DNA from: a virus
Length of the DNA stretch: 64,000 nucleotides
Reading direction: 5' to 3' (one strand)
IMG/VR virus record: IMGVR_UViG_3300045988_005351
Coordinates: 1-64,000 of that record
Made by a program: the position numbers and the translations under genes. The notes below the pieces were generated by a model. It had not been told where the DNA came from and made no database searches. It was given only the letters and a program-made list of their open reading frames with translations. Shown here piece by piece: positions 11,375 through 56,961 of the stretch; positions within the stretch are counted from its first letter, which is position 1, and each line of letters begins with the position of its first letter.

Positions 11375-11375
11375 T

Positions 11376-35284: not shown

Positions 35285-36124
35285 ATGAAGTTGTGTAAAT
35301 CTTCGTTTGAAATATGGCAGCAGCCCTCTGGTCTTGAAGGTGTTTATAAGCAGATAGAGCATGTAGGTAGAGTCTGCTATAAATCTGAGGACAAGATAAC
35401 AGAAGATAGTGCTAAGCCATTTGTGGATAGGATGATTAAGTCTGGTCATGGTGCTATGTTGGAACATGGTACAGTGTATCTGGCTATGCCTATGGAGACT
35501 ATACTACCTATAGAAGCTAATGGTTGGGGTAAATATACTAAGAACCCTTATTCAAAAGGTTTCAAGGTATGTGAGGTTGATGGTCATAGGAGAGTAGCTG
35601 TTACTACTAACCTTAGAGTATTGGTAGAGAATGACTGGCTTGATGACTTACAGTATATCTGTGAGCCTACAGAGTACCATGAGAGGAGAGTCACTGCATA
35701 CTTTATAGCTGATGCTGGAGTAATGAGAGAGTTCTTTAGACATAGAGTATTCTCAATGGCTCAAGAAAGCACTCGTTACTGTAACTACCTTAGAGATAAG
35801 TTTGGTAATTCAATTACTGTGATTTATCCATGTTGGCTTAAGGAAGAAGAGGAGTTAGAGTTTGAAGAGGATATGAGAGTTATAGAAGAACTCTACTTCA
35901 AATGGTTGAAGAAAGGGTGGACTGCTCAACAAGCAAGAGTATTTCTTCCATTAAGTGTAAAGGCAGAAGCAGTAATGACTGGTTTTGTCAGTGACTGGAA
36001 GCACTTCTTTTCATTAAGGAGCAGAATTGCCCAAACAGGTAAACCACATCCTCAAGCCCAAGAGTTAGCTGACCCCCTCATGGATGAATTTGTCAAGAAG
36101 GGCATAATGGAAACACTTCTTTAA
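35285..36124 (+). CDS. thyX: FAD-dependent thymidylate synthase ThyX
   Basis: ThyX signature RHRVFSMAQESTRY (RHRxxSxxxxSxRY). Confidence 0.85.
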   Translation: MKLCKSSFEIWQQPSGLEGVYKQIEHVGRVCYKSEDKITEDSAKPFVDRMIKSGHGAMLEHGTVYLAMPMETILPIEANGWGKYTKNPYSKGFKVCEVDGHRRVAVTTNLRVLVENDWLDDLQYICEPTEYHERRVTAYFIADAGVMREFFRHRVFSMAQESTRYCNYLRDKFGNSITVIYPCWLKEEEELEFEEDMRVIEELYFKWLKKGWTAQQARVFLPLSVKAEAVMTGFVSDWKHFFSLRSRIAQTGKPHPQAQELADPLMDEFVKKGIMETLL

Positions 36125-36194: not shown

Positions 36195-36812
36195 ATGGGC
36201 AATTTTATAGTGTATAAACATACCTCTCCAAGTGGTAAATGTTATATAGGAATAACTTGTCAAGCCCCAGAGTATAGATGGGGTAACAATGGTTACAAGT
36301 ATTTGGAAGTTCTCAAAAGTGGTAAACTTAAGCATCCTTATTTTGCTCAAGCTATATTAAAGTATGGTTGGAGTAACATAAAGCATGAATTACTACATGA
36401 AGGACTATCTAAAGAAGAGGCTTGTAGATTAGAGCAAGAATATATAGCAGGGTATAAATCTCAAAGTCTATCTTATAATATTACTGATGGAGGAGAAGGG
36501 GTGTGGGGATTTCAATTCTCTGAGGAACAAAAAGAAAAACTCAGAGAGAGTCATAGAGGTAAGAAGCAAAGTCCTGAGACTGTGGCTAAAAGGGTGGCAA
36601 AGAATACTGGGAAAAGAAGAACAGATGAACAAAAAGCTAAAACTAGTAAACCTGTTTATCAATTTGACTTAGATGGTAATCTCGTAGCTGCCTATTTTGG
36701 GGTTAGAGAAGCATCAAGATGCACAGGGATAAGTGCATCTCATATAACTCAGTGTTGCAATCACTTACCTAGTAGAAAGACTGCTGGGGGTTTTAAGTGG
36801 GAGTGGCAATGA
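36195..36812 (+). CDS. free-standing GIY-YIG homing endonuclease (I-TevI/Seg-like)
   Basis: FIVYKHTSPSGKCYIGIT...YRW GIY-YIG module, NUMOD3-like repeats (SEEQKEKLRESHRGKKQSPETVAKR), C-terminal HTH (TGISASHITQCCNH...GGFKWEW). No group I core elements flank it. Confidence 0.8.
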   Translation: MGNFIVYKHTSPSGKCYIGITCQAPEYRWGNNGYKYLEVLKSGKLKHPYFAQAILKYGWSNIKHELLHEGLSKEEACRLEQEYIAGYKSQSLSYNITDGGEGVWGFQFSEEQKEKLRESHRGKKQSPETVAKRVAKNTGKRRTDEQKAKTSKPVYQFDLDGNLVAAYFGVREASRCTGISASHITQCCNHLPSRKTAGGFKWEWQ

Positions 36813-38486: not shown

Positions 38487-41400
38487 ATGATAAATGCTAA
38501 TTGTTTAGTTATGACTCCTGAGTTGAAGGAGCTTAACGGTCAGTTTCCTAAGATGCCTGCTCAAATATTTAGAGTTCTAGTATCTAAATGGCAATATGAG
38601 TATGGTAAGGCAGATAGCTTACCTACTAGAGATGATATTATAAGTATTGCTACTAAGACACAGGATAACTGGTCTGACTATATCAATCCTGATGAAGTAA
38701 AGGTTACTAATATATATGCTGGTGCTAATCAGAATACTATACTTAGTAACTTTGCGGAGAGACCTTTCATCTTCACTTCTACTATAAGTGGTGATGATTA
38801 TGTGGTGAACTCTGTAGAACAAGCTTTCCAATTAGAGAAATTACTTAGTTCTAGTATATGGGATGATGATAGTAGATGGCAAGAGATGGATTCTTATAGG
38901 GATAAAATGCTTGATGCTAGAAGTGCAAATAAAGCAAGAGCTTTAGGCAGGAAAGTCCCTTTAACAGAAGAAGATTTGATGAACTGGGATAAGAACAAGA
39001 GGGCTATTATGAAAGCACTCATAAGAACCAGCTTGAAACAGAATCTCAAAGCTCTTCAAGCACTGCTAGCTACTGGCAACAGTTCCCTTACTCATATTCA
39101 GGATAGAAGTATGTGGAGAACCCAGTTCCCTATTATATTAGAGGAACTTAGAGAAGAGTTCAGAGGAACACAAGTAGGTGATAACTTTAACCCAATCAGT
39201 AATGCTGAGGTCATTCCTATGCTAGGAGATAATAGTGTAAAGGTATATGACAAGAGTAATACTGCTGAGGGAGTAGAGATTACCAAGAGTGGTGATACCT
39301 ATAATATCAGTGTTCCTAGTGAGTTTGACCTTGACAAGAGTAGAGCTACTAACTTTGCTCAAGCTCTCTATGACCTTATCCCTTCTGGAGTGGAAGTAAC
39401 AAGCAGTGATGACTCCAAGTCCAAGACTATCCTGAACTTGGTAAAGAAGCAGGGTCTTGAGGAAAAGGATGGCAAACTTGTGAAGAGTGCTATAGACACA
39501 TCCAGTCAGTCTGGCTATATCATCAATGAGCATGAGAGCAGGTGGACTAGAGATGAGGTTGAGAATGACCCTAGAACACTATATATCTTCACTGACAACA
39601 CTGACAGAACATCTGGGGGTGAGGAAATAGGTGATGGATGGTATGCTGAAAAGTATGGTAAAGGTGGATTTGGTACAGTCAATAATCCTACCTCTGCTGT
39701 TATTAGAGGCTTACCTAATGCTGCTCCTATAAGTACTATGAAGTGGTTCTACAGAGAGCATGGAGTATCTGTAGAGCAAGCAAGGTGGACAGACTCTGAC
39801 CTTGAGGAGTTCAAGGAAGTCATTGATGATGAGATTGAACAAATCAAGCAGCTATGGGACAGTGGCAACTTTGATAGTATAGAGCTTCCTCAGAATGGTA
39901 TATTTGGTAAGAGCATAAAGAGTGATAAGGATAGAGGTATATCTAGACTTACAGCTACTAGAACTCCTAAGTTATACCAGTACCTCAATAAGAAGTTACA
40001 GGAGCTATCAGAGTATGTGCAAGATACCAAGAAGGCTAAGGAATATGAGAGTGAATCATCCAGTATAGATGAGAGCAACTGGCATAAGGTTGATGCTGAG
40101 TTCACTTCTATAGTAAAGAGACAAAGGGTTAACTTAATCAATGACCTGTTCACACAGGAAGTTGAGAAAGCTCAAGAAGCTACAGTTGCAAGACTGAATG
40201 ATGAAATGGCTAAGGCATCTACCATTGGTAAGAAGTTGGAAATAGCTAAAGCTATCAAGAACCTTAGACCTTATGTGGTGATAAAACAGGAAAAACCGTT
40301 TAAGCTTTTTGAAAAAGTGAGAGCTAGGTTTGAGCAGCTTGTTAATTATATCACAGATAGTAGGGAGGACTATGTTAATAGTCTTATAGGTAGCTGGGCT
40401 GGGAAAGCAAACTCAAGACTTCCTATGGCAGCTCAAAAGGCTTTGGCTGAGAGAATGGCAGATGTTCATTTACTCAAGTACAAGCAAATACTTGATAACT
40501 GGAGTGACTTGGTTATGGATGCTGCTAATACCTACAGCTATGACTATGGGGTAATCATGGATGTTACTGTCAATGACATTGAGGAGGATATTGATAATAC
40601 TCCTACTGATGATGAGGGTAACAACCAGAATGAGCAGATAGCTGATGAGAAGGAAGAGACTCCCTACAAGGAAGGTTGGCAAGTAAAGGTGAGGGAACTC
40701 TCAGCATTTGAGAGTATGACCAATCAGGTAAGGCAAGCTATTGGCAGGATATATAGGAGAGACAGGAATGGTGACATAGTTGTGGATGACTTAGGTTTTC
40801 CACAGAAGTTACAGCAATCCTATGTATTTGCTGAGTTAATCTCTGCTCTTAGAGATATGACTAATGCCAAGCAGATGGTGCCTATGCTTGAGGCACTGCA
40901 AGCCAGAAAGTCTTGGGCTGTTCAGATAGTTGATGCCATTAAGAATGATGAGAGGCTCTTCACATCATTCTATAGAGTATTCAGAAAGGATTACTTGAAT
41001 ATGTGGATTCAGATTGAAAGCACTGCCCCTGATGGTAGTGTTACTATCAAGACCCACAATATCAATAAGCCTGCTGGTACTGCCCACTATTTTGATGAGT
41101 GGAGGGATAACTTTGAGTATGGTATCACCCTTGATGAGGACAGTATCTATGACCAGAATGGTGAGATAAGACTGGATAAGGCTGAGCTTGGTCTTAAGCT
41201 GGTAGATGCAGCTATGGATAAGTTCAGGGGACTAAAGTCCAAGGAAGAGAAGCAGCAAGTGATACTTGAGAATGTGGATAGCATCCATAAGTTGTTAGAT
41301 ATGCTTGGTATCTTTGTTACTCCTGACACACTGAATGATATACTTACATTCAATGTGAACTTGAATAACAAGGCTGAACTTCCTGGTAGTATAGTACTCT

Positions 41401-44400
41401 CAAACCTTAGAACCATCTTCAAGGATATGCCTACTAATGATGGTATCAAGAATGGTGAGCCTGCTGACCTAATCAACATATATGGTAGAGCTTTCAACAA
41501 TATAGCTACTGCTATTAACAATGTTGAGGAGGATGAAGTGGAATCATCAGTAAGACAAGGTAAGAAGACTCTCTATGCACATACAAGACCTTCTTATGCT
41601 ACTACTCTGGTGAAGAAGCTGAGAGGTCCAGAGTTCAAAGAGTTCATTGAAAGTGAATATAAGCCTGTTGACTTCCTGTATGATAAGGAACAAGGCAGAT
41701 GGCTCAACTCACTTATTGATGACTTGGAGAATGATGCTGATGCTAGGGATAAGTTCAATCATATAGTAGTGATAGAACACAACAGAAAGGAATACCCGCA
41801 GTGGACTCCACTTGACACATTCCTTACTCTGTTCAATCAATATAATGCAGAACCCATCAAGGGTGGTGAAGGATATGCTTGGTATCAGATGCCTCTGTTA
41901 TCAGATGCAACCAGTGCTGAGTTCCTTAGAGCCAAGAGAGTCAGGAAGAACTATGAAGAAGTACTTCTTGACAAGTTTGCAGATGTTGTAAGACAAGAGT
42001 ACAATAGGATTGTAACAGTCAAGCAGAGAAACAATACTCCCAATATCAAAAAGATTGCCTACTATGACATGACTGATGATAGTGAGGGAGGTGCTAGATT
42101 CCACTTCTTCCCTAAGCTGAACACAGAAGCCTTCAATAAGGATGGAAAGACATTCTTTGAGCAGTTGGCTGAGGTAGCTGATGATACAGATGCTTTCAAC
42201 CAAAGAGCTAAGGAAGCTGTCCAGACTATTATGAATGAGGACTTTATAGCTGCACTTGACAACTGGGCATCTATTGGAGTGTTTGATAGAGTGGATGAGA
42301 ACAATGAGAACTCATCATTCAGATACTTCAAGCAGAGAACCAGAGAGAATGTAGAGGCAGCTCTTAGAGAGTATTACTGGAACACTACTTATATGCAGTC
42401 TCAAATCATACAGCTAATGACTACTGACCTTGCATACTATGGCAACTATACTAACTTTACCAAGAGAGCATTGGAGTTTCACTCTCCTACAGAGAAGTTG
42501 AATACCCTTGCAAAGTGGAATGGTGAGTATGTGCTGGCAAGTGAGGATGAGAATGGCAATGTGACTGTAAGACCTGAAAGAGTTATCTATCTGACTGATG
42601 AGGTCAAGCCTTCCAACTGGATGAAGGATGTTGAGGAAATCATTGACCAGAAGATAGCTAAAGGAGAACTTACAGAGTATGATAAGACTGTCATACTTAA
42701 GAAGTGGGGTGATACCAATGTTACTGATGCTCAGGCATTCAGAACATTGAAGTCCTTTAGGGCAACCCAGATAGCTGCTGATATGTGGAGTGATGATGCT
42801 GAAACAGCCTATAATAACATAAGGAATAACACATGGACTGCACAGGACTTTGTAATCCTGTGGAATACCAGAAAGCCTTATCTTTATACTCAGACCAACC
42901 AATCAGACAGAGTTGGTGGTACTATGAGACTGGCTGCACAGCATAAGAACTCTGAAATGATAATGCTCACACAAGCTATATTTGGTTCTATACTTCACCA
43001 ATCTGGTAAACTTAAAGGTTTATCAGAGTTCATGGAGGATAAGAACATAGATGTAGCTATGTTTGGTACAGCAGTTAAAGTAGGAGGTCAAGGCTTCATA
43101 GACCTTAATGGTATCGAGAATGCAGAAGATGTCAAGAGTAAGCTCCAGAAGGAAGTTTATATAGGAGGAACTGATGCTATAAATCCTGAGGTTGTGCATG
43201 AGTATAACTGGGATGATTATGGTATTCAGGTTGCTACCCCTGAGCATGGTATCAATGCCATTCAGCTTGTAGGTACTCAGATTAGGAGACTTATAGGTAC
43301 TGATATGGGAGCTGATGCTGTGTTTAAGGTAGGTAACAAGAGCCTTACTAGAGACCAATGGAGAGACTACTTCAATGCAGTCAATACAGCTAATATAAGA
43401 GAAGCCTTTGAGAAGCTGGATAAGGAGTTCAGAGACCCTAAGAAGATTTCTGACTTGCTTATTAGTGAAATCAAGAGCAACTCTAGGTACAGCAATGACC
43501 TTATAGAAGCTGTTACACTTGATAAGAATGGACAGTTCAATATACCTATCTTTGACCCTTCACAGAGTCAGAAGATACAGGAGCTACTTAACAGTATAGT
43601 TAAGTCTAGGATAGTGAAGCAAAAGATAAATGGAGGTTCACTTATCCAAGCTACTGCATGGGCATTGAATGAGAAGGACAGACCTCAGATTGAGTGGGGT
43701 ATAGATAAGAATGGTCAGAAGTATATCAAGTATATGGAAGCCTATATTGCTTGCCCTGATGACAGACTGTATGAACTCCTGCTTGAAGATGATGGAAGTA
43801 TCAACATAAATAAGAAGGACAGTAAAGGAAACTATATTGTACCTGCTAAGTACAGAGAGGCTATTGGCTATAGAATCCCAACTGAGGATAAGTACTCAAT
43901 GATACCTATAAGGGTCAAAGGGTTCTTGCCTAGACAAGTGGGTTCTGTAATCATACTTCCAGAGGAAATCACTACCACTACTGGTTCTGACTTTGACGTG
44001 GATAAAATCTACATGATGTATCATAGCTTGAACTTCAAGAACATCTATGACATCAAAGCTGCTTGGGATGCTTTCTATAAGAGCCACCCAGACATAGTAG
44101 AGTCCATTGAAGAGGCAAAGAGAGTAAACTTCAAGAGAGCTATGGATGAGGCTATTGAGAAGAATCCAGAAGCTGACTTGAGCCAGTATGATACAGATGA
44201 GTTATTTGAGGACTTCACCAGACCATACAAGAACTATGAGTGGGTTAAGGGTGTGAAGGAAGCATTCTCTGCTTGGTTCAATCCTATCAAGGATAGATAC
44301 CTGAGCCAGAAGTCTGTAGAAGTAGTTACCTATAATGATGCAGATATAGACCTCAGTGATTCTAATGAGAACAGAAAGGTTGATATATACAGACAAGCCA

Positions 44401-46805
44401 AGAAGAATACTAAAGCTCAAAGAGACAGTATGATGATTGACTTGATGTGGTCAGTATTGACTAACTCTGATACTGCTGGAAAAATGATTAACCCTGGTAA
44501 CTTCGATGAACAAAAGAGAAATGCCAGAATAGTCAATCTTCTGGACAGTCTTTCATTGGATGAGATTGATAGGCTTGGTGGTATTGACAAGATACTTAAC
44601 CTAAGTCTCAAAGAGGCTAACAAGATGTTGGAGAAGTATGGCAGGATTGTAAATCCTCTTACTCCTGACACTTGGATTACTTATCAACAGAGGAATATGT
44701 CTGGTGCAGGTCTTGTACCTATGGCAGCTACTCAGAATGCCTCTCATGCCTTGACACAGTTGACTAAGAACTTTGGTTTGAAGAAGCCTTACAGGTTCAT
44801 ATTCAATGGTAAGAGGTTAGGCTCTCTCAACTCTGTAAAGAGTGCAAATGACAAGTTCATCTCTAGGAATGTATGTAGTTATCTGGCTGCTTTTGTTGAT
44901 AATGCCAAAGACCCTGTAGCAGGTGATTTGAACATTAACAATAATACAGCTAACCTAGCATTCTTATTGCTTAGAATTGGTAACTCTCCTATCACTACCA
45001 GTCTTATATTAAGACAACCTGCAATGATGAAGGTTATGAAGTATGTGAATAGTGGCAGATACTCAATGAGTCAAGCTATTGAGGAAGCTATGGAGGACTA
45101 CAGAAAGCAGGGAGGTAATTCCTCTTATGGTGGTAAGACTATTGACTTTAATTTCACTGATGAGTGGTTAGCTGCTAATATAGCTGCCGAGAAGAATGGT
45201 GGTGATATTCACTCAAGCCATATAGAAGAGATGGAGTTTGCAGTCAACCAGATAAAGGTTCTAGTCATGCTAAAGCAGATGAACACTGCTGCTGATGCTC
45301 TAGGAGATGTGGTAAGAAGAATAAGAAGTGACTCTCAAAGTGGTGGTGCTGGTGGCTCTATTGCTGCTGGTAATGATAAGATAGATGGTCTTGAGAGGAT
45401 ACTTGAGGATGCAGCTACTAAAGTTTCTTATCCTTTACAAGGTTTGGGCTTTGTAAATGAGATGATGATGAGCAGGACAGAGGAGGATATAATAAACAGT
45501 ACTCTTCCTATTCAAACTGCTACATTCCAATGGGGCCTGATGGCTACACATGACTGGTATGCTAGGTTATTCCCCCAAGTATCTGAACAATTCAGAAGAG
45601 TAGCAGATTTAGCTAAGGATTTCACAACCTATGGTAATCTTGATGATACTACTATCAACAGGATTTACAGCCAATATCTGATATACCTTATGACTGGTAT
45701 CTCCAATGACTTTAGAGGTGATGCAAATACCAGAAACTACTATATCAATGAGTTCCCTGTTGAGTTCAATGAGTTCAAGTCAAAGAACTCATATATTATT
45801 GAGAGTGTGCCTCTTCTTAGAAGATTGAAAGTACTGTTCTCAAACAATTATAATGGCTCTCCTACTATTGTGTTCAATAATGTTGGTAAGGTAACTGATA
45901 TTCAATCTGAGGATTACAGAAGTGATTTCAGAAACCTACTGGCTAACGAGAGTACAAGAGATATGGCAGCCAAGTTACTAATATATTCTTTTTATAGAGG
46001 TCTTGGATTTAGTCCTAGTGGTTTCTCAAACCTGATTCCTACACAGTTGAAGATGAGTGATGTTACTGATTATGTTGATACATTAAGAGGTGTTCTGAAT
46101 ATGAAGACCAATGATAAAGACAATCTCCAATTCATGTATCAATATATAAGGAACAACATGGAGGACAGAAGGTTTGTACCTGAGGTATCAATGACTGGTA
46201 TCTTTAAGGGAGAACCTGAGGACAGCTTCACTGTTACAGTAACCGAGAGGTCTTCACAGGATATGAAGAGATTCATATATCCTATAAAGGATGACGGTAG
46301 GATTGTGTACAGAAAGTTTGTATGCTATACATATAAGGGAGGTAAATACTACTATTATTATGATGGTACAAGTAACACCTATAAAAGAATAAAGCCTCTT
46401 GGAAGTTCTCAATATCAAGAGTATGACTACAATGCTGTGGGACTTGTAATGAAGGCCCAGATTAAGGAAGCCAAGCAGAAGAGCTTTAACTTTAGGGATG
46501 ACTATAGAGCTGCTAACTCAGCAGAGTCCTCAATGATTCAGTTTGAACTGTCAGAAGAAGCATATAGGAATATGCCTAGCTTTGATGGTATGCCTGCTCC
46601 TACACTGGATGACTTATATAGTACCAGTAGAGAAGCCAGAGCTGCTCAAATGGCTGCTCAATGGCAAGAGCTGGATAGGCAGTTTGAGCCTAGAACCCCT
46701 ACAGCAGAAGACCTTAGCAGGCTTGGTGCAATGGAAAAGTTTGGGAACTTCGATAGACTTGATGCAATGTCTCAAGACTTAGAAGGTAACAATAAATGTC
46801 AATAA
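38487..46805 (+). CDS. virion-type multidomain RNA polymerase (crAss-like gp66 type) with N-terminal NADAR domain
   Basis: 2772-aa ORF with a DFDVD metal-binding motif at 43989-44003 (TTGSDFDVDKIYMMY). Residues ~70-225 match NADAR/YbiA blocks. Confidence 0.75.
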   Translation: MINANCLVMTPELKELNGQFPKMPAQIFRVLVSKWQYEYGKADSLPTRDDIISIATKTQDNWSDYINPDEVKVTNIYAGANQNTILSNFAERPFIFTSTISGDDYVVNSVEQAFQLEKLLSSSIWDDDSRWQEMDSYRDKMLDARSANKARALGRKVPLTEEDLMNWDKNKRAIMKALIRTSLKQNLKALQALLATGNSSLTHIQDRSMWRTQFPIILEELREEFRGTQVGDNFNPISNAEVIPMLGDNSVKVYDKSNTAEGVEITKSGDTYNISVPSEFDLDKSRATNFAQALYDLIPSGVEVTSSDDSKSKTILNLVKKQGLEEKDGKLVKSAIDTSSQSGYIINEHESRWTRDEVENDPRTLYIFTDNTDRTSGGEEIGDGWYAEKYGKGGFGTVNNPTSAVIRGLPNAAPISTMKWFYREHGVSVEQARWTDSDLEEFKEVIDDEIEQIKQLWDSGNFDSIELPQNGIFGKSIKSDKDRGISRLTATRTPKLYQYLNKKLQELSEYVQDTKKAKEYESESSSIDESNWHKVDAEFTSIVKRQRVNLINDLFTQEVEKAQEATVARLNDEMAKASTIGKKLEIAKAIKNLRPYVVIKQEKPFKLFEKVRARFEQLVNYITDSREDYVNSLIGSWAGKANSRLPMAAQKALAERMADVHLLKYKQILDNWSDLVMDAANTYSYDYGVIMDVTVNDIEEDIDNTPTDDEGNNQNEQIADEKEETPYKEGWQVKVRELSAFESMTNQVRQAIGRIYRRDRNGDIVVDDLGFPQKLQQSYVFAELISALRDMTNAKQMVPMLEALQARKSWAVQIVDAIKNDERLFTSFYRVFRKDYLNMWIQIESTAPDGSVTIKTHNINKPAGTAHYFDEWRDNFEYGITLDEDSIYDQNGEIRLDKAELGLKLVDAAMDKFRGLKSKEEKQQVILENVDSIHKLLDMLGIFVTPDTLNDILTFNVNLNNKAELPGSIVLSNLRTIFKDMPTNDGIKNGEPADLINIYGRAFNNIATAINNVEEDEVESSVRQGKKTLYAHTRPSYATTLVKKLRGPEFKEFIESEYKPVDFLYDKEQGRWLNSLIDDLENDADARDKFNHIVVIEHNRKEYPQWTPLDTFLTLFNQYNAEPIKGGEGYAWYQMPLLSDATSAEFLRAKRVRKNYEEVLLDKFADVVRQEYNRIVTVKQRNNTPNIKKIAYYDMTDDSEGGARFHFFPKLNTEAFNKDGKTFFEQLAEVADDTDAFNQRAKEAVQTIMNEDFIAALDNWASIGVFDRVDENNENSSFRYFKQRTRENVEAALREYYWNTTYMQSQIIQLMTTDLAYYGNYTNFTKRALEFHSPTEKLNTLAKWNGEYVLASEDENGNVTVRPERVIYLTDEVKPSNWMKDVEEIIDQKIAKGELTEYDKTVILKKWGDTNVTDAQAFRTLKSFRATQIAADMWSDDAETAYNNIRNNTWTAQDFVILWNTRKPYLYTQTNQSDRVGGTMRLAAQHKNSEMIMLTQAIFGSILHQSGKLKGLSEFMEDKNIDVAMFGTAVKVGGQGFIDLNGIENAEDVKSKLQKEVYIGGTDAINPEVVHEYNWDDYGIQVATPEHGINAIQLVGTQIRRLIGTDMGADAVFKVGNKSLTRDQWRDYFNAVNTANIREAFEKLDKEFRDPKKISDLLISEIKSNSRYSNDLIEAVTLDKNGQFNIPIFDPSQSQKIQELLNSIVKSRIVKQKINGGSLIQATAWALNEKDRPQIEWGIDKNGQKYIKYMEAYIACPDDRLYELLLEDDGSININKKDSKGNYIVPAKYREAIGYRIPTEDKYSMIPIRVKGFLPRQVGSVIILPEEITTTTGSDFDVDKIYMMYHSLNFKNIYDIKAAWDAFYKSHPDIVESIEEAKRVNFKRAMDEAIEKNPEADLSQYDTDELFEDFTRPYKNYEWVKGVKEAFSAWFNPIKDRYLSQKSVEVVTYNDADIDLSDSNENRKVDIYRQAKKNTKAQRDSMMIDLMWSVLTNSDTAGKMINPGNFDEQKRNARIVNLLDSLSLDEIDRLGGIDKILNLSLKEANKMLEKYGRIVNPLTPDTWITYQQRNMSGAGLVPMAATQNASHALTQLTKNFGLKKPYRFIFNGKRLGSLNSVKSANDKFISRNVCSYLAAFVDNAKDPVAGDLNINNNTANLAFLLLRIGNSPITTSLILRQPAMMKVMKYVNSGRYSMSQAIEEAMEDYRKQGGNSSYGGKTIDFNFTDEWLAANIAAEKNGGDIHSSHIEEMEFAVNQIKVLVMLKQMNTAADALGDVVRRIRSDSQSGGAGGSIAAGNDKIDGLERILEDAATKVSYPLQGLGFVNEMMMSRTEEDIINSTLPIQTATFQWGLMATHDWYARLFPQVSEQFRRVADLAKDFTTYGNLDDTTINRIYSQYLIYLMTGISNDFRGDANTRNYYINEFPVEFNEFKSKNSYIIESVPLLRRLKVLFSNNYNGSPTIVFNNVGKVTDIQSEDYRSDFRNLLANESTRDMAAKLLIYSFYRGLGFSPSGFSNLIPTQLKMSDVTDYVDTLRGVLNMKTNDKDNLQFMYQYIRNNMEDRRFVPEVSMTGIFKGEPEDSFTVTVTERSSQDMKRFIYPIKDDGRIVYRKFVCYTYKGGKYYYYYDGTSNTYKRIKPLGSSQYQEYDYNAVGLVMKAQIKEAKQKSFNFRDDYRAANSAESSMIQFELSEEAYRNMPSFDGMPAPTLDDLYSTSREARAAQMAAQWQELDRQFEPRTPTAEDLSRLGAMEKFGNFDRLDAMSQDLEGNNKCQ

Positions 46806-49800
46806 AGATGAGTACAAGTTGTGTATTACATCCTAGATTGAGCAATGGGGAGAAATCCCCATTGTTCTCTAGGTTAAAAAATTTCCTAGGTGACAGGAAG
46901 CTAGCAGAGAATGTATATTATAAGGCTATCAATCCAGCCTTTAGAGAGACATTCCCTAATGTAAGGTTTGACCATAATGGAGAACCACTGCTCGAAGACC
47001 TTATAACCCAGTGTGGTATTGGCTATAATAAGGATAGTGAGTCAATGCTTGATTTCCTTAATAGTGAGTATGGTACTAAATCTGTACCAAAGACTATACA
47101 ATCAGTTATAGAACTACAGAATAGAGCAGCTTCTTTCAATATCAACAATCCTCTTAATAAGAGATACTCTGCTGAAATAACCTCTTCTGGACATGATGTG
47201 TCTATGGAGATAGTTACAGCTACAGGTAATGAGAGAGACTTAGGTAGACAGCAGAAGTTCAATGCTGAGCTTAATAATCAGTTAGTCAAGCTATTGAATA
47301 GCTGGGGTGCTGATGTTGCAGCTCTAACTGAGCTTGAAGAGGCTAGCAATGTCAATGGAGTCATGGACTTAAGTGCTGGTATCAATGCTGCTACTGGACT
47401 TAAGGAAGTTATCAGAATAGCTAAAGGTGAGAGAGGTCAAGTTGCACTAGCTGAGGAGTGGGGTCACTTTGTAGTTGATGCTGTAAAGGACAGCCCATTA
47501 AGAGACAGGATGCTTAACTCATTAAAGAATGAGGAAGTATTACAAAGAGTGCTTGGTAGTGAGTATAACAGGTACAATGAGGTTTATAATGGTGATATAG
47601 ACCTTATGGCTAAGGAAGCACTAGGCAAGATGATGGCTCAGGTGCTTAACAACTATGATGCTACAGCTCCTAATGACAGGCTCTTTGAGAGATACAAGAA
47701 GAATGTCTTGGATTTCTTTGGAAAGAGAGATACTGATGAGATTGATGAGATAATCAACAAGGTCAGAGAACAGGTATATGAGTTCACTACCAATGTCTTT
47801 AATGGCAAGTATCAACTTGATATTAGCAGTAGAGACTATAACAGGAGATTATTCAACCTTGGTAATGATGTATCAAGGGACTATAACATCTTGAAGAGGA
47901 TTATTCAACAAGAGAAGAAGAGGCTAGCTATCTATGGTAAGGGAGCTAAGGCTACTGCTAGGGAAAGGGAAGAGAAGAAAGGCTCATTTGATGAGAAGCA
48001 GAAACTCTTCATAGATAAACTAAGCAATGACCTTGAGAATCATAGGGAACTGGAAGGTATATATACATACCTGACAGAGGCTGTCAGAATGTTGAGACAG
48101 CTTAGTGATAGACTTGATGCTGTGCATAACTCACAGACTAGTTGGAAGGATAAGTTCTCAGCACTCAGGAGTATCAGGGATTATATGTCATCCTATGGCA
48201 GTATCATGGAGGAGCTAAGACAAGAGATGTATAAGGCAAAGCAAGAGGGTGATATGAGATTCAAGGAGAAGCTACAAGAGTCTCTTGATGAGTTCTCAGG
48301 TCTACTTGCCAGACTAGGCTCTGACTGGGCAGAAGTGTCTAAGGATGAGTTTGCCAGATTCCTTGCTCCCTTTGAGGGAGAGGGTATCTCAATGTCTATT
48401 AGAGGTGAGAGAAAGCAGTACAATATAAGAGAGCTTCTTGACTATATAGAGAAGGATATTTCTATAGTAGAGAGATGGACTGATGCTATGGCAGACAGTA
48501 CTGACCCTATACTTAGAATATATGACTCTTTAGTTAAAGACCAGAAGAATAAGGCTAGGTATAACACTATCAATAATGAGAAGGAGATACTGATGCACTC
48601 CAAGAAGCTGGAAGATGCTGGTATAAAGAACACTGACTTCATGTATGAAAAGACCAGTGATGGTAAGATTACAGGTAACTTTGTAACCAGATACAACTGG
48701 GGAGACTACTTTGCAGCACTTAGCAAGTATGCCAAGAGCCTACCTCAGGATATGGGCAGAGAGGAGAAGTCTATCTTAATCAGCAGATGGAAGAGAGCCA
48801 ATACAGATAAGAAGGGTAATCCTATAGAGAAGTACTATAATCCTCAGTATGATGCTATCCAAAGGAATGCAGCTATGAAGGAGTACTATGACTTTATGAT
48901 TAACCTAAAGAGGAATCTAGATTATAGATTACCAGCAAGGTATGTAAGGTTCAATAAAGCTCCTCAGATAAGGAGAGACTTCTTGGAAAGAGTAATGGGT
49001 AAGGGTAATAAGTTCCAATACCTATGGGAGAGCTTCAAGGATAACTTGGTAAGAAGGGAAGATGATACTGAGTTTACTTATGCAAGGCAAGACTTTGAAG
49101 GCAATCAGATATACAATCTTCCTATCTACTATACAAGACCCCTTAAGGATAAGAATGACCTATCAACTGACTGTACATCAACTATGATAGCTTATGCTGC
49201 TATGGCTAATGACTATGCAGCTATGAATGATGTCATAGATGCTCTTGAGACAGGAAGAACAATACTCTCTGAGAGAAGGGTGGCACAAACCAGAGGTGGT
49301 AAGATTATGAGAGAGGTACTTAATAAAATACCCAGCAATCTGACCAAGAAAGGTGATGTGGCTAACTTTATGGGCAGGCTTAATGACTTCATGCTTATGC
49401 AGGTATATGGTGAGCAGATGAAGGATGAGGGTACTGTACTTGGAGTTGATGTTGGTAAGGCTGTCAATATGCTGAATAAGCTGCAAAGCTATGGTACTAC
49501 TGCCCTGTCAGTACTTACTGGTACTGCTAACTTGGCACAGAATATTGTGATAAGCAACATAGAGTCTATCTCTGGTCAGTTCTTCAATAAGTCTGAGCTT
49601 GCTAAGGCTGATTGGGAGTACACAAAGCTGTTACCTCAGTACCTAAGTGAGATAGGCAATAGAATACAGACTAGTAAGATGGCTCTCTTTGCAGAGAAGT
49701 TCAATGTTCTTCAAGACTACAAGCAGCATGTGAGGGGAGTAGATTGGGATAGAAAGACTTGGTTCTCAAGGTTCTTCAAGGAAGATACTCTATGGTTCAC

Positions 49801-50725
49801 TACTAGTGCAGGAGACCACTACACTCAAATGAGGACTGGTCTAGCTTTGGCTATGAGGTTGAAGCTACAGGACAAAGATGGTAAACCTATAAGTCTTTAT
49901 GATGCTCTTGAAGTGAAGTATCTTGATGAGGCTCATCCTGAGTATGGAGCTAACCTAGTAATTAAGGAAGGAGTTACTGACCAAGATGGTAAAGCTGTGG
50001 ATAACAAGTACTTCACTGGTGTCACTAAGAAGATAAGGGGTATCAACAACAAGCTGTATGGTATCTATAACCAAGAGGATAAGAATGCTATGCAGTCCAG
50101 AGCAGTAGGTAGATTGCTTATGATGTATAGGAACTGGATGAGACCCCTATGGTTGAAGAGATATGGAGTTGAAAGGTATAACTACGACACTGGTACTTTC
50201 GAGGAGGGCTACTACAGAACCTTATGGAACTTTATGAATACTCTTAGAAAGGACTTGAAGAAAGGTGAACTTGATATAGTGAAGCAATGGCACAATCTTG
50301 ATGATGCTCAAAAGAGCAACATATATAGAGGTCTTGCTGAGATAGCTACATTCTTATCTCTTATGGGTATTATTGCAACACTCAAGGGTACACCAGATGA
50401 TGATGAGAAGGATGACTGGTTGACTGAGTATATTACTTATTCAATCATCAGGTTGAAAGCTGACTTAGGTTCTCTAATGCCTGGTCCTACTATGCTTGAT
50501 GAAGGTCTAAGGTTGTTTGACAATCCATTTGCAGCAGTAAGGGTTCTAAAGAACTCAAGACAGTTGCTTAACTTGTTTGACCCTGATACTTGGACTACTG
50601 AGATAGACCAAGGTATCTATAAGGGATATACTCAAGCAGAGAAGATAATGTTACAACCTGTACCATTTATCAGACAATTCCAGAACTTGTTTGACCCAGA
50701 GGAGCCAACAAGGTGGTATAAATAA
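46796..50725 (+). CDS. large virion-associated protein (1309 aa), function unknown
   Basis: Overlaps the RNAP stop (alternative ATG 46808); coiled-coil-rich; hydrophobic segment IATFLSLMGIIATL near the C-terminus. Confidence 0.65.
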   Translation: MSIKMSTSCVLHPRLSNGEKSPLFSRLKNFLGDRKLAENVYYKAINPAFRETFPNVRFDHNGEPLLEDLITQCGIGYNKDSESMLDFLNSEYGTKSVPKTIQSVIELQNRAASFNINNPLNKRYSAEITSSGHDVSMEIVTATGNERDLGRQQKFNAELNNQLVKLLNSWGADVAALTELEEASNVNGVMDLSAGINAATGLKEVIRIAKGERGQVALAEEWGHFVVDAVKDSPLRDRMLNSLKNEEVLQRVLGSEYNRYNEVYNGDIDLMAKEALGKMMAQVLNNYDATAPNDRLFERYKKNVLDFFGKRDTDEIDEIINKVREQVYEFTTNVFNGKYQLDISSRDYNRRLFNLGNDVSRDYNILKRIIQQEKKRLAIYGKGAKATAREREEKKGSFDEKQKLFIDKLSNDLENHRELEGIYTYLTEAVRMLRQLSDRLDAVHNSQTSWKDKFSALRSIRDYMSSYGSIMEELRQEMYKAKQEGDMRFKEKLQESLDEFSGLLARLGSDWAEVSKDEFARFLAPFEGEGISMSIRGERKQYNIRELLDYIEKDISIVERWTDAMADSTDPILRIYDSLVKDQKNKARYNTINNEKEILMHSKKLEDAGIKNTDFMYEKTSDGKITGNFVTRYNWGDYFAALSKYAKSLPQDMGREEKSILISRWKRANTDKKGNPIEKYYNPQYDAIQRNAAMKEYYDFMINLKRNLDYRLPARYVRFNKAPQIRRDFLERVMGKGNKFQYLWESFKDNLVRREDDTEFTYARQDFEGNQIYNLPIYYTRPLKDKNDLSTDCTSTMIAYAAMANDYAAMNDVIDALETGRTILSERRVAQTRGGKIMREVLNKIPSNLTKKGDVANFMGRLNDFMLMQVYGEQMKDEGTVLGVDVGKAVNMLNKLQSYGTTALSVLTGTANLAQNIVISNIESISGQFFNKSELAKADWEYTKLLPQYLSEIGNRIQTSKMALFAEKFNVLQDYKQHVRGVDWDRKTWFSRFFKEDTLWFTTSAGDHYTQMRTGLALAMRLKLQDKDGKPISLYDALEVKYLDEAHPEYGANLVIKEGVTDQDGKAVDNKYFTGVTKKIRGINNKLYGIYNQEDKNAMQSRAVGRLLMMYRNWMRPLWLKRYGVERYNYDTGTFEEGYYRTLWNFMNTLRKDLKKGELDIVKQWHNLDDAQKSNIYRGLAEIATFLSLMGIIATLKGTPDDDEKDDWLTEYITYSIIRLKADLGSLMPGPTMLDEGLRLFDNPFAAVRVLKNSRQLLNLFDPDTWTTEIDQGIYKGYTQAEKIMLQPVPFIRQFQNLFDPEEPTRWYK

Positions 50726-50778: not shown

Positions 50779-53700
50779 TTACTTGCAAGCTGGTATGAAT
50801 GATTCCCTTGTCAAGGGGTCAGCACCATCCCAGAACTTCTGCATATCTTCTTCACTTAGTCCATCAAGAGCCACATAACTTTTCTCATCTGCTGTAAGTT
50901 CGTTCCACTTCTTATGTGAAAAGAGACTCCTCTCCATAGAGGTGCTTGGCTTATCTGATGTAACTTTCTTATCTTTCTCTCTCCTGTCTATTGATGCTTG
51001 TCTTGGGTCTGGTACACCATCAGGGTTTCTTAAGTTGTTGAAGATTTCAAAAGTCTTCCTCATTTCAGGAGTCACTTTCTTATCTTTTTTCTTTTCTGGC
51101 TCTTCTTTAAGCTCTATTGAAGTACCATAAGGGCTATTCTCCAATGGTGTAGAACTCATAGCATCCTGTATAACAGCAGCTACATTATCAGCTTGTATGA
51201 AGTCCATGATGTTGTTTCTAGTCCTTCCTGCCTCATCAGATACTAATGATGGGTCTATTGTCAATGACCTGCCATTAGGTAGTACCAACTTATAACCATC
51301 ACCTACCTTAGCTAAGTAGAATGTCTGACCATTCTTAGTGGTGAACAGTACCTGCATATCTGTCTGATGGTACTCTGGCTTTCCCTTACCCATAGTAACA
51401 TACTGACCCTTTACAGTTCTAAGTGATGTTGGTGACTGACTTGCTGGTACTTCATCAGTTCTCTCAAATACACCACTCTGATATGTCAAAGGTACATAGT
51501 TCTCTGGGGATATCCTAGCTATTCCTCCATCCTTCTCTCTACTATATCTGAGTTGGAATGGTACTATAACTAGATTAGATACTGGAACACCAAAGCTATC
51601 CTCAAACAACTTAGCATAGGCACTCAACTGTAGAGTATATTGGTCTTTGTTACTTCTAGTAAAGTATCTAGGATTCTCAACTCTTGAGAAACCAGAGTCC
51701 TTAGTGGAGTACTTACTAGTCTTGAAGTCAAAGATACTTATCTCACCTGTGCTAGGATTATAAGCAAACACATCAAGCTCTCCTGCTATTCTTCTACCAT
51801 CAGAGTACTTATGGAATACCACAGTTCTATCAGTAACCAACTTGAGACCTCTTCTATTTGCATCATCCCTGAACTTGCCTAATCCTCTCTTCAAAGCACC
51901 AAAGGCTTCATCAGACATACCCTCAGGCTTAGTTACATTAGTAGGGTCAATCAAGAATTGTCTTGCTACTTCATCTACTAGAGAGCCTCTACTTGTAGCA
52001 GCATCTCCTCTGCTTGGTCCTATATAGTTAGAACCTATTACAGAGTGTACTCTTTGATACTCATGGTATTGACCATCTTCCTCCTTAATCATGTAAGAAC
52101 CATTGGAGGTGTCTGGATTACCATTGTCATCTCTAAGCACAAGCTTCTGAGAGTCTTGAAGGGATTTTACAGCAGTGGCTGATTGAGATGCCTTACTCTT
52201 TCTACCATCAAGAGTAGCTTCTAACTCCTCAACCTCTTTAGGAGACAGGTACTTGTTAGTAGCTCTATTATAGCCTCTCTTACCATTCCTATCTACGATG
52301 AGTACTTTACCATCATGTTGATTAACACCAAAGTAGTTAGTACCATAAGCAGAATTTATATAAGCAAGGTCTTTGATTTGTTGGGCATCCTCCCCTATGT
52401 CTACTATAGAACCAGACTGGTCAAATATATAACCATTCCTTACAAAGTATTCCTTACCACCATACTGTACTCTAGTACCTCCTTTGGCTTGCTGTGATGC
52501 CTTAGCTCTCTCAAATGCACTATTAGTATGAGTGGTGTTAGGTTTCTCATTCAATAAGAACCAGGTTCCCTGCATTCTCTTACCAGTAAGATAAGTAGCA
52601 AGTACATTACTATCCCTTAATCTATTAGCATACTCTTGACCTTTCTTGCCAGTGAGCTTCTTAGCATCAACATTAAAGGCAAGGTTAGCTTCATAGAAGG
52701 CATCAAGCACTTGGTTATATACCTCCTCTACAGGTGCTGTATAAGGTTCAGATGCTTGTGTAGTACCAGCTCCTATATTAAGAAGTGACTTCTTTGCAAA
52801 CCTCTTTAACAGTATATTCCTGTTCTGTCTCTTACCATCCCTATTAGCAAAAGCTATCTGTAATGATACATCATTAGCTCTGCTTATTATATTGATGTGG
52901 AAACTATCTGGTATATATAGTAACTCTATCAAGTCCATATATACATTGTCAAGAGCCTCATCAAATCCCTTCTCAAGGTTAGCTATACCAGCTAAGTCAT
53001 TAAAGGCTTTCTTCAAGTCATTAGCTATAGGATTATCCTGTGTAGATAGGTCAAACTCAGTCTTATTCAGGTGTCTTATATAGACCTTCTTAGGACTAAG
53101 AGTACCTTTACTGTTAGGTAGAAGTATATATACCTTACCGTCAGAGTTAGCCTCATCGAACACTGGCTCTACAAAGGTATCTGTATTAGCTTCCATAGAC
53201 CTGTTCTTCATAACACCTATAGTAGCATTATCAGTACCTAGCAGGTCTCCTACTGATTGAGTCTTACTCATATCATAGCCATACTGACCATTCATTATCT
53301 TAGATACTCTTACAGTAGGTTGTTCACCCTTCTTAGCCTTATTCTTTATTTCCTTTACTCCCTCAATAGCCTCATCAGTGTTCATATAGTTCACTAATGT
53401 GCCTTTATGGTAGAGTGCCAGTAACTCAGGATGTTCATCTGTAGCAGGCTCATATCTTACCTCAAGCTCATCACCTTCCTTTATATTACCCTCATTAACA
53501 TAGTCAAAGGCATTCTTACCAGTCTTAGGGTCTACTTCCTTTAACTTGTTATATACATAAGAGTAGCCTTGATTCCTGTCATCACCAACAAAGTCAATCA
53601 ATACTCCATCCCTCTTTGCATCCAAGTCAAACTGTGGTATGACTGCCTTAAGAACTCCTGTTACTGCTGTAGGTTTATACTTACTTACCTCAGCCTCAGC

Positions 53701-56700: not shown

Positions 56701-56961
56701 TGCTACTCCAGAGTCAAACATACTGTTACCCCAATCACTAGGAGTTTCAGTATAATTAACCTTACCAGCTCTGCTAAGAGTAGAAGTTACTCCTATATCA
56801 TCTGGTAATAGAGAGTTTGCCTCAGACTCCTGAGGCAGACCCCCATTAAGCATTTGCAACTCTCTATATGAAACAGGACCTGTCTTTGTAAGGTCTATAT
56901 AGCCAGTGTTTATTTTATCTTCTATAGTTGGTTGCTTCTTATTTGCCATATCATTGTACAA
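50779..56961 (-). CDS. giant virion/ejection protein (2060 aa) with C-terminal PD-(D/E)xK nuclease-like domain
   Basis: Gly/hydrophobic N-terminal segments and long coiled coils. AGELDVFAY (51763-51786), ISIFDFKTSK (51721-51740) and LQLSAYAK (51611-51634) form a D...DxK...QxxxY set. Confidence 0.7.
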   Translation of the reverse strand: MYNDMANKKQPTIEDKINTGYIDLTKTGPVSYRELQMLNGGLPQESEANSLLPDDIGVTSTLSRAGKVNYTETPSDWGNSMFDSGVANQYEFENYGDYRGERQPWYAKIGAGLAKGVVLAGTTFLNGTVGLVAGAGTAVTEGRWSGLWDNDFSRAMDSINKGAEEVLPNYYTQDELNQPWYTNIFTANFWGDKFIKNIGFTVGAFYSGGIYSKGLGAIMQAVKVGSKATSMVTSGVGSVISAANEGSIEALNAANEFEEKYKTALDGEFRQRLEAIQAEYNANAGKELVRMDGDSQSFYDPAYVKYKEAIERERNNYNQALAKLEEDKAKVGNATLLMNIPILTASNFYQFGKLYSRGFNTARRTADIVGDVGKYEARGLSKTARAGRILGGGLMEGKEEVEQQIATDVSQHYYATDVNNYYRSLQDPDAAQETLSWTKSFGETLGRTLGEGSTWEQFFIGGLTGLMGMPKFRGIRNEDGKLQSPVVLEENMFSKWKELKQEADRNQAIATHMNERVNSPEFKNYYQGLIRHNKYQNDMNDAALRDDEFDYKNAEHAQLISDISMFSNAGKLGDLMTLINSAYDTSDENLQSIIDNTTTTINKDGKEVKVGPFIDKNGNPMGKEDMIAELTKQRDEILGTIDEYVKTRNKLDSETGQRFTDEQLDELTWMQTQLGNWAKRAGEMSGQVKDVIGNVIGRLDSQMRAAEAIRTHEGMAHADLSENYRRADRVIQSITEAINNLNLVRSLDNETMAATLAQNPNILEGLKEQVNKLDNDVLSANDKESVLKKLDDLLRLGNASKIYQDKFAEYLFNPKKQEEDHAEADKQNIDKDAEITRAKQVEALNKTANFQEVEALINNGEATLDDLDGSNSDAARSYKKASLFKKKATELINSSDSEHKSELLDMLNRRFNENATYDDLSDEALVTELPLEATTWDEKAQESFESEFNEILKSARDKVNSGNSQKQDVEAKKTGTKRPDNVGKDDVAQPPVDKPFSADETISKTDKLNIAPEAKTEAKALVSQIAKDIEKLSKSKDPKLIRQTQRSVNALSAMVGNDAIADIIDRVRELSKPDTFNPSSPEEVLREAEAEVSKYKPTAVTGVLKAVIPQFDLDAKRDGVLIDFVGDDRNQGYSYVYNKLKEVDPKTGKNAFDYVNEGNIKEGDELEVRYEPATDEHPELLALYHKGTLVNYMNTDEAIEGVKEIKNKAKKGEQPTVRVSKIMNGQYGYDMSKTQSVGDLLGTDNATIGVMKNRSMEANTDTFVEPVFDEANSDGKVYILLPNSKGTLSPKKVYIRHLNKTEFDLSTQDNPIANDLKKAFNDLAGIANLEKGFDEALDNVYMDLIELLYIPDSFHINIISRANDVSLQIAFANRDGKRQNRNILLKRFAKKSLLNIGAGTTQASEPYTAPVEEVYNQVLDAFYEANLAFNVDAKKLTGKKGQEYANRLRDSNVLATYLTGKRMQGTWFLLNEKPNTTHTNSAFERAKASQQAKGGTRVQYGGKEYFVRNGYIFDQSGSIVDIGEDAQQIKDLAYINSAYGTNYFGVNQHDGKVLIVDRNGKRGYNRATNKYLSPKEVEELEATLDGRKSKASQSATAVKSLQDSQKLVLRDDNGNPDTSNGSYMIKEEDGQYHEYQRVHSVIGSNYIGPSRGDAATSRGSLVDEVARQFLIDPTNVTKPEGMSDEAFGALKRGLGKFRDDANRRGLKLVTDRTVVFHKYSDGRRIAGELDVFAYNPSTGEISIFDFKTSKYSTKDSGFSRVENPRYFTRSNKDQYTLQLSAYAKLFEDSFGVPVSNLVIVPFQLRYSREKDGGIARISPENYVPLTYQSGVFERTDEVPASQSPTSLRTVKGQYVTMGKGKPEYHQTDMQVLFTTKNGQTFYLAKVGDGYKLVLPNGRSLTIDPSLVSDEAGRTRNNIMDFIQADNVAAVIQDAMSSTPLENSPYGTSIELKEEPEKKKDKKVTPEMRKTFEIFNNLRNPDGVPDPRQASIDRREKDKKVTSDKPSTSMERSLFSHKKWNELTADEKSYVALDGLSEEDMQKFWDGADPLTRESFIPACK

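Follow-up and report, generated by a model that had tools for sequence, protein, structure and literature searches.

The DNA analysed here, positions 1 to 64,000 of the IMG/VR virus record IMGVR_UViG_3300045988_005351 (the window, 64,000 nucleotides in full), encodes on its plus strand a giant protein that sequence comparison identifies as a crAss-like virion RNA polymerase (RNAP) of the gp66 family. From the N-terminus, the protein reads as a leader (residues 1-60), a NADAR domain (61-235), a small alpha/beta domain (236-340), a DUF7831 domain (341-520) and, from residue 525, the polymerase itself. The three domains between leader and polymerase form a module that recurs in related phages and may carry a counter-defence activity into the host.

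The polymerase gene and its genomic setting

The polymerase gene is a single open reading frame (ORF) of 2772 amino acids (aa) at 38487..46805, and the ORF list shows this frame free of interruptions across its whole length. A phmmer search matched residues 1237-2187 to the virion RNAP gp66 of phage phi14:2 (PDB 6VR4_A) at E=1.9e-28. With residues 639-2772 as the query, tblastn matched 111 phage records, the best of which are annotated 'putative RNA polymerase' in Steigviridae cr128_1, Kehishuvirus and PhiCrAssBcn (∼35% identity over ∼90% of the query). The RNAP body (40059..46805, plus strand) starts at residue ∼525 and shares homology with crAss RNAPs that lack an insert. It contains the metal-binding motif DFDxD, here DFDVD, at 43989-44003 (residues 1835-1839). 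A preliminary description of this DNA, made from the sequence alone, had placed DFDVD and the NADAR domain in one 2772-aa polypeptide, and the uninterrupted frame bears this out.

The neighbourhood is also crAss-like. Upstream of the RNAP gene lie genes for a helicase, NrdD, a DNA polymerase and ThyX; downstream come a homologue of the 'RNA-polymerase subunit' and then a convergent minus-strand block that includes a virion structural protein. Among GenBank phages, the N-terminal 1.9 kb of the RNAP gene gave zero megablast matches; this gut-type crAss-like phage has no close deposited relative.

Insertion behind a conserved leader

The leader occupies 38487..38666 on the plus strand. It was modelled by AlphaFold2 as three helices at a predicted local distance difference test score (pLDDT) of ∼90, and its cysteine, Cys6, is encoded at 38502-38504. 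BLASTP with the cr128_1 RNAP, which lacks the insert, pairs window residues 5-47 with its residues 3-46 and window residues 525-738 with its residues 80-298 (E=2e-14). Similarly, window residues 534-900 match residues 90-457 of the RNAP of Kehishuvirus 'tikkala' (E=1e-58), whose N-terminus reads MSKRCITT. Because both the leader and the body align to polymerases without an insert, ∼470 residues (50-520) are inserted between them. The NADAR domain had been described as fused to the N-terminus of the polymerase; these alignments replace that picture with one in which NADAR, the alpha/beta domain and DUF7831 together are an insertion behind the leader.

The leader cysteine, found at position 3-7, is invariant in 17 of 17 aligned RNAP homologues. 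Nearly all full-length homologues begin with M-x(1-5)-C (for example MINANC, MNNC, MSKRC, MSKTC or MAYC), after which comes a helical segment. Such a cysteine-bearing start could act as a signal for packaging, ejection or processing. No description of an M-x(1-5)-C leader was found in the literature searched. As a separate observation, the downstream 'RNAP subunit' proteins also begin M...C: MSTSC in the window (46796-46822, MSIKMSTSC), MAKKC in Kehishuvirus and MSRNC in cr128_1.

An intein or intron-encoded element was considered for the insert and rejected. It contains no Hint or LAGLIDADG domain, the flanking sequence inspected has no Cys...His-Asn/Cys junctions, and the purifying selection on the insert as protein, described below, also opposes such an origin.

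A His-type NADAR domain

The NADAR domain spans residues 61-235 (38667..39191, plus strand), with the Pfam core at 81-203. It had been placed at 38690-39180, or residues ∼69-232, and every residue string quoted for it is present in the frame that starts at 38487. Pfam PF08719 scores 39.7 bits (E=7.7e-10) on the isolated domain against a gathering cutoff of 35.1; the score is 36.7 bits on the N-terminal 638 aa, still over the cutoff, and 34.3 bits on the whole 2772-aa protein, marginally under it. The region also matches PHROG 1017 (E=2.7e-16). A profile built from 17 homologues reached the PDB entries of YbiA (2B3W, E=5e-11) and of the Phytophthora NADAR, PnNADAR (8BAU, E=3e-9). Searched alone with phmmer against PDB sequences, the N-terminal 638 aa gave no match, so both were reached by the family profile only. 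Structure prediction, which the preliminary description had proposed as a check, agrees: residues 1-345 were modelled with AlphaFold2 from an 18-sequence alignment (pLDDT 85, predicted template-modelling score 0.70), and a Foldseek search of the PDB with this model gave two significant matches only, 8BAU (E=2.1e-5) and 2B3W (E=2.6e-4), each at probability 1.00. By profile, modelled fold and the catalytic residues that follow, residues ∼61-235 are identified as a true NADAR domain.

The predicted active site is recognizable residue by residue. In characterized NADARs the catalytic pair, which has proved essential, is E43/K50 (PnNADAR), E88/K95 (E. coli C7) or E36/K43 (T4 AdfN) (PMC11543638, PMC11257639). 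In the window, the corresponding E111 (38817-38819) and K118 (38838-38840) lie in the motif SVEQAFQLEK with the same i/i+7 spacing. NADARs differ at a third catalytic position: members of the YbiA subfamily have Glu, those linked to DarT1 have Asp, and those of phages have His (PMC11543638, PMC11125620). In the window domain the YbiA Glu (E125) is absent, and H203 (39093-39095) in SLTHIQD aligns with VLKHSMA of T2/T4 AdfN, an assignment made by sequence alignment rather than by superposed structures. Read from this alignment, the window domain is a His-type, or phage-type, NADAR. Among RNAP-embedded NADARs, E111 is conserved in 25/25, K118 in 25/25 and H203 in 23/25, and His occupies the H203 position in 68/68 other NADAR copies aligned. 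Such near-invariance in the RNAP-embedded copies argues for retained chemistry. A NADAR profile match and intact catalytic residues, two of the points on which the earlier assignment had been made to depend, are thus both present.

The subfamily is a different matter from the fold. The domain had been called YbiA-like, which holds for the NADAR fold and the Glu/Lys pair and fails for the YbiA subfamily. As a YbiA equivalog it was rejected: the match to TIGR02464 reaches 31.6 bits where 73.7 are required, and Glu125 is replaced by His. The idea that the domain is a YbiA-type metabolic N-glycosidase clearing reactive riboflavin-pathway intermediates draws on this same weak NCBIfam match ('riboflavin biosynthesis intermediates N-glycosidase'), whose score lies far under the cutoff. 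With the subfamily Glu replaced, and no rationale for a metabolic enzyme within an injected polymerase, we regard a metabolic role as extremely unlikely. A DarG1-type antitoxin was also rejected, as there is no PADLOC match, the third residue is His rather than Asp, and the gene context is that of a phage RNAP. PF08010 (Phage_30_3) gave no match in the window NADAR even at E≤10; the domain belongs to a separate His-type lineage and is therefore not filed as an AdfN orthologue.

The linker and DUF7831 domains

Between NADAR and DUF7831 lies a small alpha/beta 'linker' domain, delimited from the AlphaFold2 model (residues 236-340; 39192..39506, plus strand). The model places strands within 242-275 and 303-333 and helices at 284-297 and 310-320, with pLDDT 74-93. 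The linker has no Pfam match, and Foldseek gave only GNAT-like, non-significant matches (E 0.17-0.8). It is kept in the relatives that we number L002, L003 and P0035, and phmmer found no match to it in P0036 or L006. In P0003, P0004 and P0006, a MAFFT alignment shows a longer, divergent segment at the linker position.

DUF7831 follows at residues 341-520 (39507..40046, plus strand), with its Pfam core at 349-473. The stretch LYIFTDNTDRTSGG...ISTMK (residues 365-419) belongs to a match to Pfam DUF7831 (PF25176) of 41.0 bits against a cutoff of 27. A second, unassigned domain had been noticed at about 39530-39760; its presence stands, and it can now be assigned to DUF7831, a family for which we found no solved-structure relative. 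An AlphaFold2 model of residues 334-638 has a pLDDT of 76 overall and ∼90 in the alpha/beta core of DUF7831. Foldseek found no PDB fold match for it (best E=1.6). In BFVD the model matched DUF7831 proteins at E values down to 1.8e-15. These include crAss-like cr131_1, cr130_1 and cr272_1, where the domain sits within chains of 1300-1450 aa, as well as giant viruses (Tupanvirus, Hyperionvirus, Yasminevirus) and phages of Rhizobium and Caulobacter.

Two fold assignments for DUF7831 were rejected. GenBank calls some matching proteins 'DprA-like' (cr130_1) or 'molybdenum carrier' (IAS virus), which suggested a SLOG or DprA-like fold; hhalign against cpYpsA segments gave 0.4% probability, and no SLOG protein appeared among the Foldseek PDB matches. 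These names probably refer to a SLOG-type domain that lies elsewhere in the protein, apart from DUF7831, and a separate cpYpsA domain behind such a label was confirmed for IAS virus only. The rhodanese-phosphatase-like DUF4326 was likewise dismissed, with no Pfam match at E≤10 and a meaningless E=8.4 for rhodanese-like 3G5J. The invariant polar residues of DUF7831 are R355, D370, N371, R374, R407, N411, S416, T417 and E449, a set that may resemble an enzyme or phosphate-binding site.

Selection on the module

Ratios of nonsynonymous to synonymous substitution rates (dN/dS) were computed from codon alignments with two full-length IMG/VR relatives, L002 and L003 (∼85% identical). The NADAR domain has a dN/dS of 0.23 and the linker 0.24, close to the 0.22 of the RNAP C-terminal region. 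The RNAP core lies at 0.09-0.10, and DUF7831, at 0.04-0.06, has the lowest values in the 2772-aa protein. Together with the conserved E, K and H, these low ratios indicate that NADAR and DUF7831 are maintained as functional proteins and that the NADAR active site is preserved.

Conservation of this kind bears on whether the module does chemistry at all. It could instead be a non-catalytic element that senses NAD+ or ADP-ribose, aids packaging or ejection, or holds the RNAP autoinhibited before packaging. Its place beside the conserved leader, itself a possible packaging or ejection signal, would suit such a role. In addition, gp66 is self-inhibited by accessory domains (bioRxiv 10.1101/2020.03.07.982082), and a mention in PMC11257639 has one phage NADAR acting without enzymatic activity. 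We consider this very unlikely, however, as RNAP-embedded copies hardly ever depart from the catalytic E, K and H, and cultured crAss-like phages (cr128_1 and Kehishuvirus) have working polymerases in their virions although these lack the insert, so that packaging does not require it.

Recurrence among crAss-like phages

Four independent assemblies keep leader, NADAR, DUF7831 and RNAP together in one intact protein: the window, L002 (2771 aa), L003 (2764 aa) and P0036 (2809 aa). In a further relative, L004, the same protein runs off the contig end. L004 carries an extra 173 aa between linker and DUF7831 (10988-11506), for which Pfam gave no match; in P0002 this position is taken by a cpYpsA SLOG domain (residues 235-384). 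The point between linker and DUF7831 thus looks like a second, internal swap point of the module. Among GenBank genomes, cr126_1 (Kolpuevirus hominis, QOR59539.1) has a NADAR domain at residues 62-189 of a 2402-aa RNAP labelled 'DUF1768 domain-containing protein', a label that already flags the domain. In IAS virus, a short leader, DUF7831 and cpYpsA are found in an 838-aa ORF directly upstream of the annotated RNA polymerase gene, with an 11-nt overlap, and in cr130_1 DUF7831 lies within a ∼5800-aa 'DprA-like' protein.

A broader survey used HMMER with residues 1-520 against 1.84 billion cluster representatives (50% identity) and returned 829 proteins at E≤1e-3, the best 150 of which were classified by phmmer against pieces of the window proteins. 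Among these 150 clusters, 42 are RNAP homologues (NADAR alone in 11, DUF7831 alone in 20 and the two together in 11), a count that depends on the sensitivity of phmmer to a fast-evolving polymerase. A further 54 are giants of at least 1000 aa with no detectable RNAP match. NADAR and DUF7831 occur together in 37 of the 150. Relative to the RNAP core, the cargo is mostly N-terminal (15 versus 5 for NADAR, 24 versus 4 for DUF7831). Pfam searches of 17 RNAP homologues found NADAR in 12, DUF7831 in 10, cpYpsA in 4 and DUF1848 in 1. By these comparisons, a NADAR domain within the RNAP is recurrent in crAss-like phages, one GenBank genome included. What emerges is a set of giant injected proteins open to a small range of cargo domains that centres on ADP-ribose.

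Other domains were seen in single cases. The RNAP N-terminal region of P0044 contains a PD-(D/E)XK nuclease at residues ∼880-980 (PF12705, 22.6 bits). In P0038, the string 'GIIGNPF' at residues ∼430-450, which has no Pfam match, presumably resembles DUF4326. The cargo repertoire may be wider than NADAR, DUF7831 and cpYpsA.

Two annotation features are of note. In L006 (2858-2868) and in IAS virus (L011, 8294-8304), the cargo-bearing ORF and the polymerase ORF overlap by 11 nt. The IAS virus junction contains runs of N, and in L006, at ∼5x coverage according to its contig name, the frames read through with a single-base shift; the split ORFs are most likely sequence artefacts rather than a real frameshift. 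In cr131_1 (L008, 6064-10269), the annotated 1401-aa DUF7831 coding sequence has 11 in-frame stops under translation table 11. Stop-codon reassignment is known in some Crassvirales, and the cr131_1 stops are consistent with it. ORF calls made with table 11 will therefore miss such proteins.

Neighbouring giant proteins

Directly after the RNAP gene, and outside the module, the window encodes a 1309-aa homologue of the 'RNA-polymerase subunit' or cargo protein (46796..50725, plus strand) with no Pfam domain. Its first 240 aa are 58% identical to an L006 gene (8896-10326) that lies just downstream of the NADAR-bearing RNAP of that phage. The L006 protein then carries an ADP-ribosyltransferase (ART) domain, ART-PolyVal (PF18760, 54.9 bits). 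It would appear from these matches that a second injected protein can also take up enzymatic cargo, after its conserved N-terminal part. On the minus strand, a 2060-aa giant protein (50779-56961) also lacks any Pfam domain; its true start (MANKKQ...) probably lies downstream of the listed TTG. Homologues of the 1309-aa protein with NADAR and/or DUF7831 include P0118 and P0123, and homologues of the 2060-aa protein in other metagenomic phages include P0108 (3372 aa), with DUF7831, and P0161 (2561 aa), with NADAR. The window itself yielded no second copy of NADAR, DUF7831 or cpYpsA.

The ART-PolyVal domain of L006 raises the possibility that NADAR serves to counteract or regulate an ART injected by the phage, limiting self-damage to phage DNA, RNA or RNAP while the ART acts on targets in the host. 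P0013 joins DUF7831 to ART-PolyVal, and pairs of ART toxin and NADAR antitoxin are known, namely DarT1-NADAR and YarT-YbiA (PMC11125620). In the window, however, no ART was detectable: neither the 1309-aa nor the 2060-aa protein matched any Pfam family, and the L006 ART domain, used as a tblastn query, had no match at E<0.09. ART-PolyVal is also the rarest partner, present in 1 of 25 DUF7831 proteins and in 0 of the 17 RNAP homologues scanned. We consider a self-antidote quite unlikely.

Elsewhere in the window, a free-standing gene resembling GIY-YIG/NUMOD1 homing endonucleases (36195-36812; NUMOD1 25.4 bits, GIY-YIG weak) sits after thyX (35285-36124) and before the genes that precede the RNAP gene.

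Possible function at genome entry

Work on related phages supplies the route by which the module would reach the host. Orthologues of phi14:2 gp66 are found in virions, and early transcription by gp66 persists in rifampicin, which indicates that the polymerase comes in together with the DNA (bioRxiv 10.1101/2020.03.07.982082). The RNAP proteins of PhiCrAss001 were likewise found in virions and modelled as cargo ejected ahead of the DNA (PMC10172136). The statement in the preliminary description that the crAss-like virion RNAP is packaged and translocated thus agrees with the literature, for phi14:2 throughout and for PhiCrAss001 as to the virion. By homology with these two polymerases, we infer packaging and host entry for the window RNAP as well.

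The chemistry expected of the NADAR domain also has published precedents. All NADARs assayed cleave guanine-linked ADP-ribose in DNA (PMC11543638, PMC11125620, PMC11257639), and guanosine-linked ADP-ribose in RNA is a further substrate (PMC11833690). Three phage NADARs from different clades, all of those tested, remove guanine-ADP-ribose from DNA and counter DarTG1/DarT1 (PMC11257639). That NADARs strip ADP-ribose from guanine and that phage NADARs can neutralize DarT-type defence, as had been stated for this locus, is therefore established in the literature (PMC11543638, PMC11257639).

Together these lines suggest a mechanism. Polymerases of this class occur in virions and, on the phi14:2 evidence, enter along with the DNA; the module would thus reach the cell ready-made, joined to the first enzyme to engage the phage genome. 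The NADAR domain would most likely hydrolyse the N-glycosidic bond between ADP-ribose and a nucleobase, most likely guanine. The modified base would lie in the phage DNA, or in early RNA as it is made, and would have been ADP-ribosylated by a defensive transferase of the host, DarT1 for example. In this way the template could be kept readable before any phage gene is expressed. That a pre-made de-ADP-ribosylase enters with the polymerase and frees the template or early transcripts of base-linked ADP-ribose is, by analogy with the characterized systems, somewhat better than an even bet. Enzymatic activity, substrate, virion retention of the module and timing are predictions, and delivery of de-ADP-ribosylation at genome entry is a plausible one.

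Several points weigh against this mechanism. Cargo is thought to cross the tail partly unfolded and to refold in the cytoplasm (PMC10172136), so the NADAR domain would need to refold after passage, or could be cleaved off; processing of gp66 is named as an open question in the phi14:2 paper (bioRxiv 10.1101/2020.03.07.982082). With ∼25% identity to T4 AdfN and no PF08010 match, the activity is extrapolated across subfamilies. The DarG-type defence models of PADLOC give no match. Finally, the steady partnership of NADAR with cpYpsA-SLOG and DUF7831 fits the soluble ADP-ribose targets predicted for such sets (PMC9503650).

This last point leads to a different function, in which the module degrades soluble immune signals or toxins derived from NAD+ or ADP-ribose at entry and repairs no nucleic acid. 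Thoeris-type cyclic ADP-ribose (ADPR) isomers and ADPr-1''P are examples, and NADAR, cpYpsA-SLOG and DUF7831 would differ in the bond that they cleave. The co-occurrence of NADAR and DUF7831 in 37 of the best 150 clusters, and of cpYpsA-SLOG in the same RNAP N-terminal regions, would suit such a division of labour, and this is the role predicted for phage NADAR/SLOG/Macro sets, with likely virion packaging, by Iyer et al. 2022 (PMC9503650). On the other hand, assayed NADARs act on base-linked ADP-ribose or on riboflavin intermediates, with no cyclic ADPR activity reported in the three studies concerned (PMC11543638, PMC11125620, PMC11833690). Tethering to a DNA-tracking polymerase offers no obvious benefit for a diffusible substrate, and the window RNAP protein has no SLOG domain. 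Action on soluble signals is therefore, in our judgement, unlikely, and release of base-linked ADP-ribose from template or early transcripts remains the reading that we prefer.

The role of DUF7831 would follow from the company it keeps. Being co-inherited with NADAR and cpYpsA-SLOG, it probably handles another ADP-ribose-derived substrate or product. A more ambitious scheme would have crAss-like phages maintain a cargo site behind the Cys leader of the injected RNAP, and further sites in neighbouring injected proteins, at which NADAR, cpYpsA-SLOG, DUF7831 and ART-PolyVal are swapped. There, the polymerase-tethered NADAR would clear template or nascent RNA in cis, a transcription-coupled de-ADP-ribosylation, and DUF7831 would be a new ADP-ribose-processing enzyme fold. 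Taken as a whole, we regard this scheme as doubtful.

Relation to known systems

The closest functional precedents are NADARs encoded by lytic phages, T4 AdfN (gp30.3), Bas32 and Bas60, which neutralize DarTG1 and share with the window domain the NADAR fold and a Glu and Lys seven residues apart. T4 AdfN and the window domain also have His at the third catalytic position and a presumed role in reversing ADP-ribosylation. The differences lie in family and context: the window domain matches PF08719 and not the PF08010 family, and AdfN is free-standing and not described as packaged (PMC11257639), whereas the window NADAR resides with DUF7831 in a giant virion-class RNAP. Antitoxins of the DarG1/BC4488 family belong to the same superfamily and have the same Glu/Lys pair, but their Asp, their N-terminal DNA-binding extension and their DarT1 operon partner are absent from the window NADAR.

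As an architecture, the window protein resembles the polyvalent proteins of Iyer et al. 2017 (PMC5512222), in which an RNAP for early transcription and unrelated enzymatic domains directed at conflict with the host are combined in one giant protein of an injected class. Several biochemically unrelated domains share one ORF in the window, as in that definition, with injection by homology. The polyvalent polymerases described there are N4-type, T7-like RNAPs joined to a metallopeptidase, ART or lysozyme, whereas the scaffold here is the crAss two-barrel RNAP. NADAR, DUF7831 and cpYpsA are not listed as RNAP cargo in PMC5512222, where NADAR occurs 0 times in the text.

Among crAss-like polymerases, phi14:2 gp66 and PhiCrAss001 gp47 share a homologous polymerase body and the DFDxD motif with the window protein. 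The cr126_1 RNAP has a NADAR domain at the same site behind the leader, 42% identical to that of the window and likewise downstream of thyX, but lacks both DUF7831 and the linker. The GenBank relatives of PhiCrAss001, cr128_1 and Kehishuvirus 'tikkala', have the same leader and the same order of thyX, RNAP and subunit genes, and in these close relatives examined no inserted module was found.

Much of the setting is already published, including polyvalent injected proteins (PMC5512222), virion packaging of NADAR/Macro proteins (PMC9503650) and phage NADARs directed against DarT1. A NADAR/DUF7831/cpYpsA module behind the Cys leader of a crAss-type two-barrel RNAP, in many lineages, seems not to have been described before. 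The literature searched, which covered neither figure labels nor subscription-only papers, contained nothing linking crAss or Crassvirales with NADAR, YbiA, DUF1768 or DUF7831.

Outlook

Crassvirales belong to the most abundant phages of the gut, and infection starts with the RNAP that they inject. If the proposed mechanism is true, the module would be among the few enzymatic counter-defences delivered before phage gene expression. DUF7831, which is virus-enriched and more constrained than the polymerase core, is a good candidate for a new enzyme related to ADP-ribose or NAD. The Cys leader and the insertion site behind it make a testable packaging or ejection signal and possibly an engineering site for protein delivery into Bacteroides. 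Finally, recurrence of the module in many divergent RNAP clusters would mark ADP-ribosylating defences as an important pressure in Bacteroidota, where they have been little studied.

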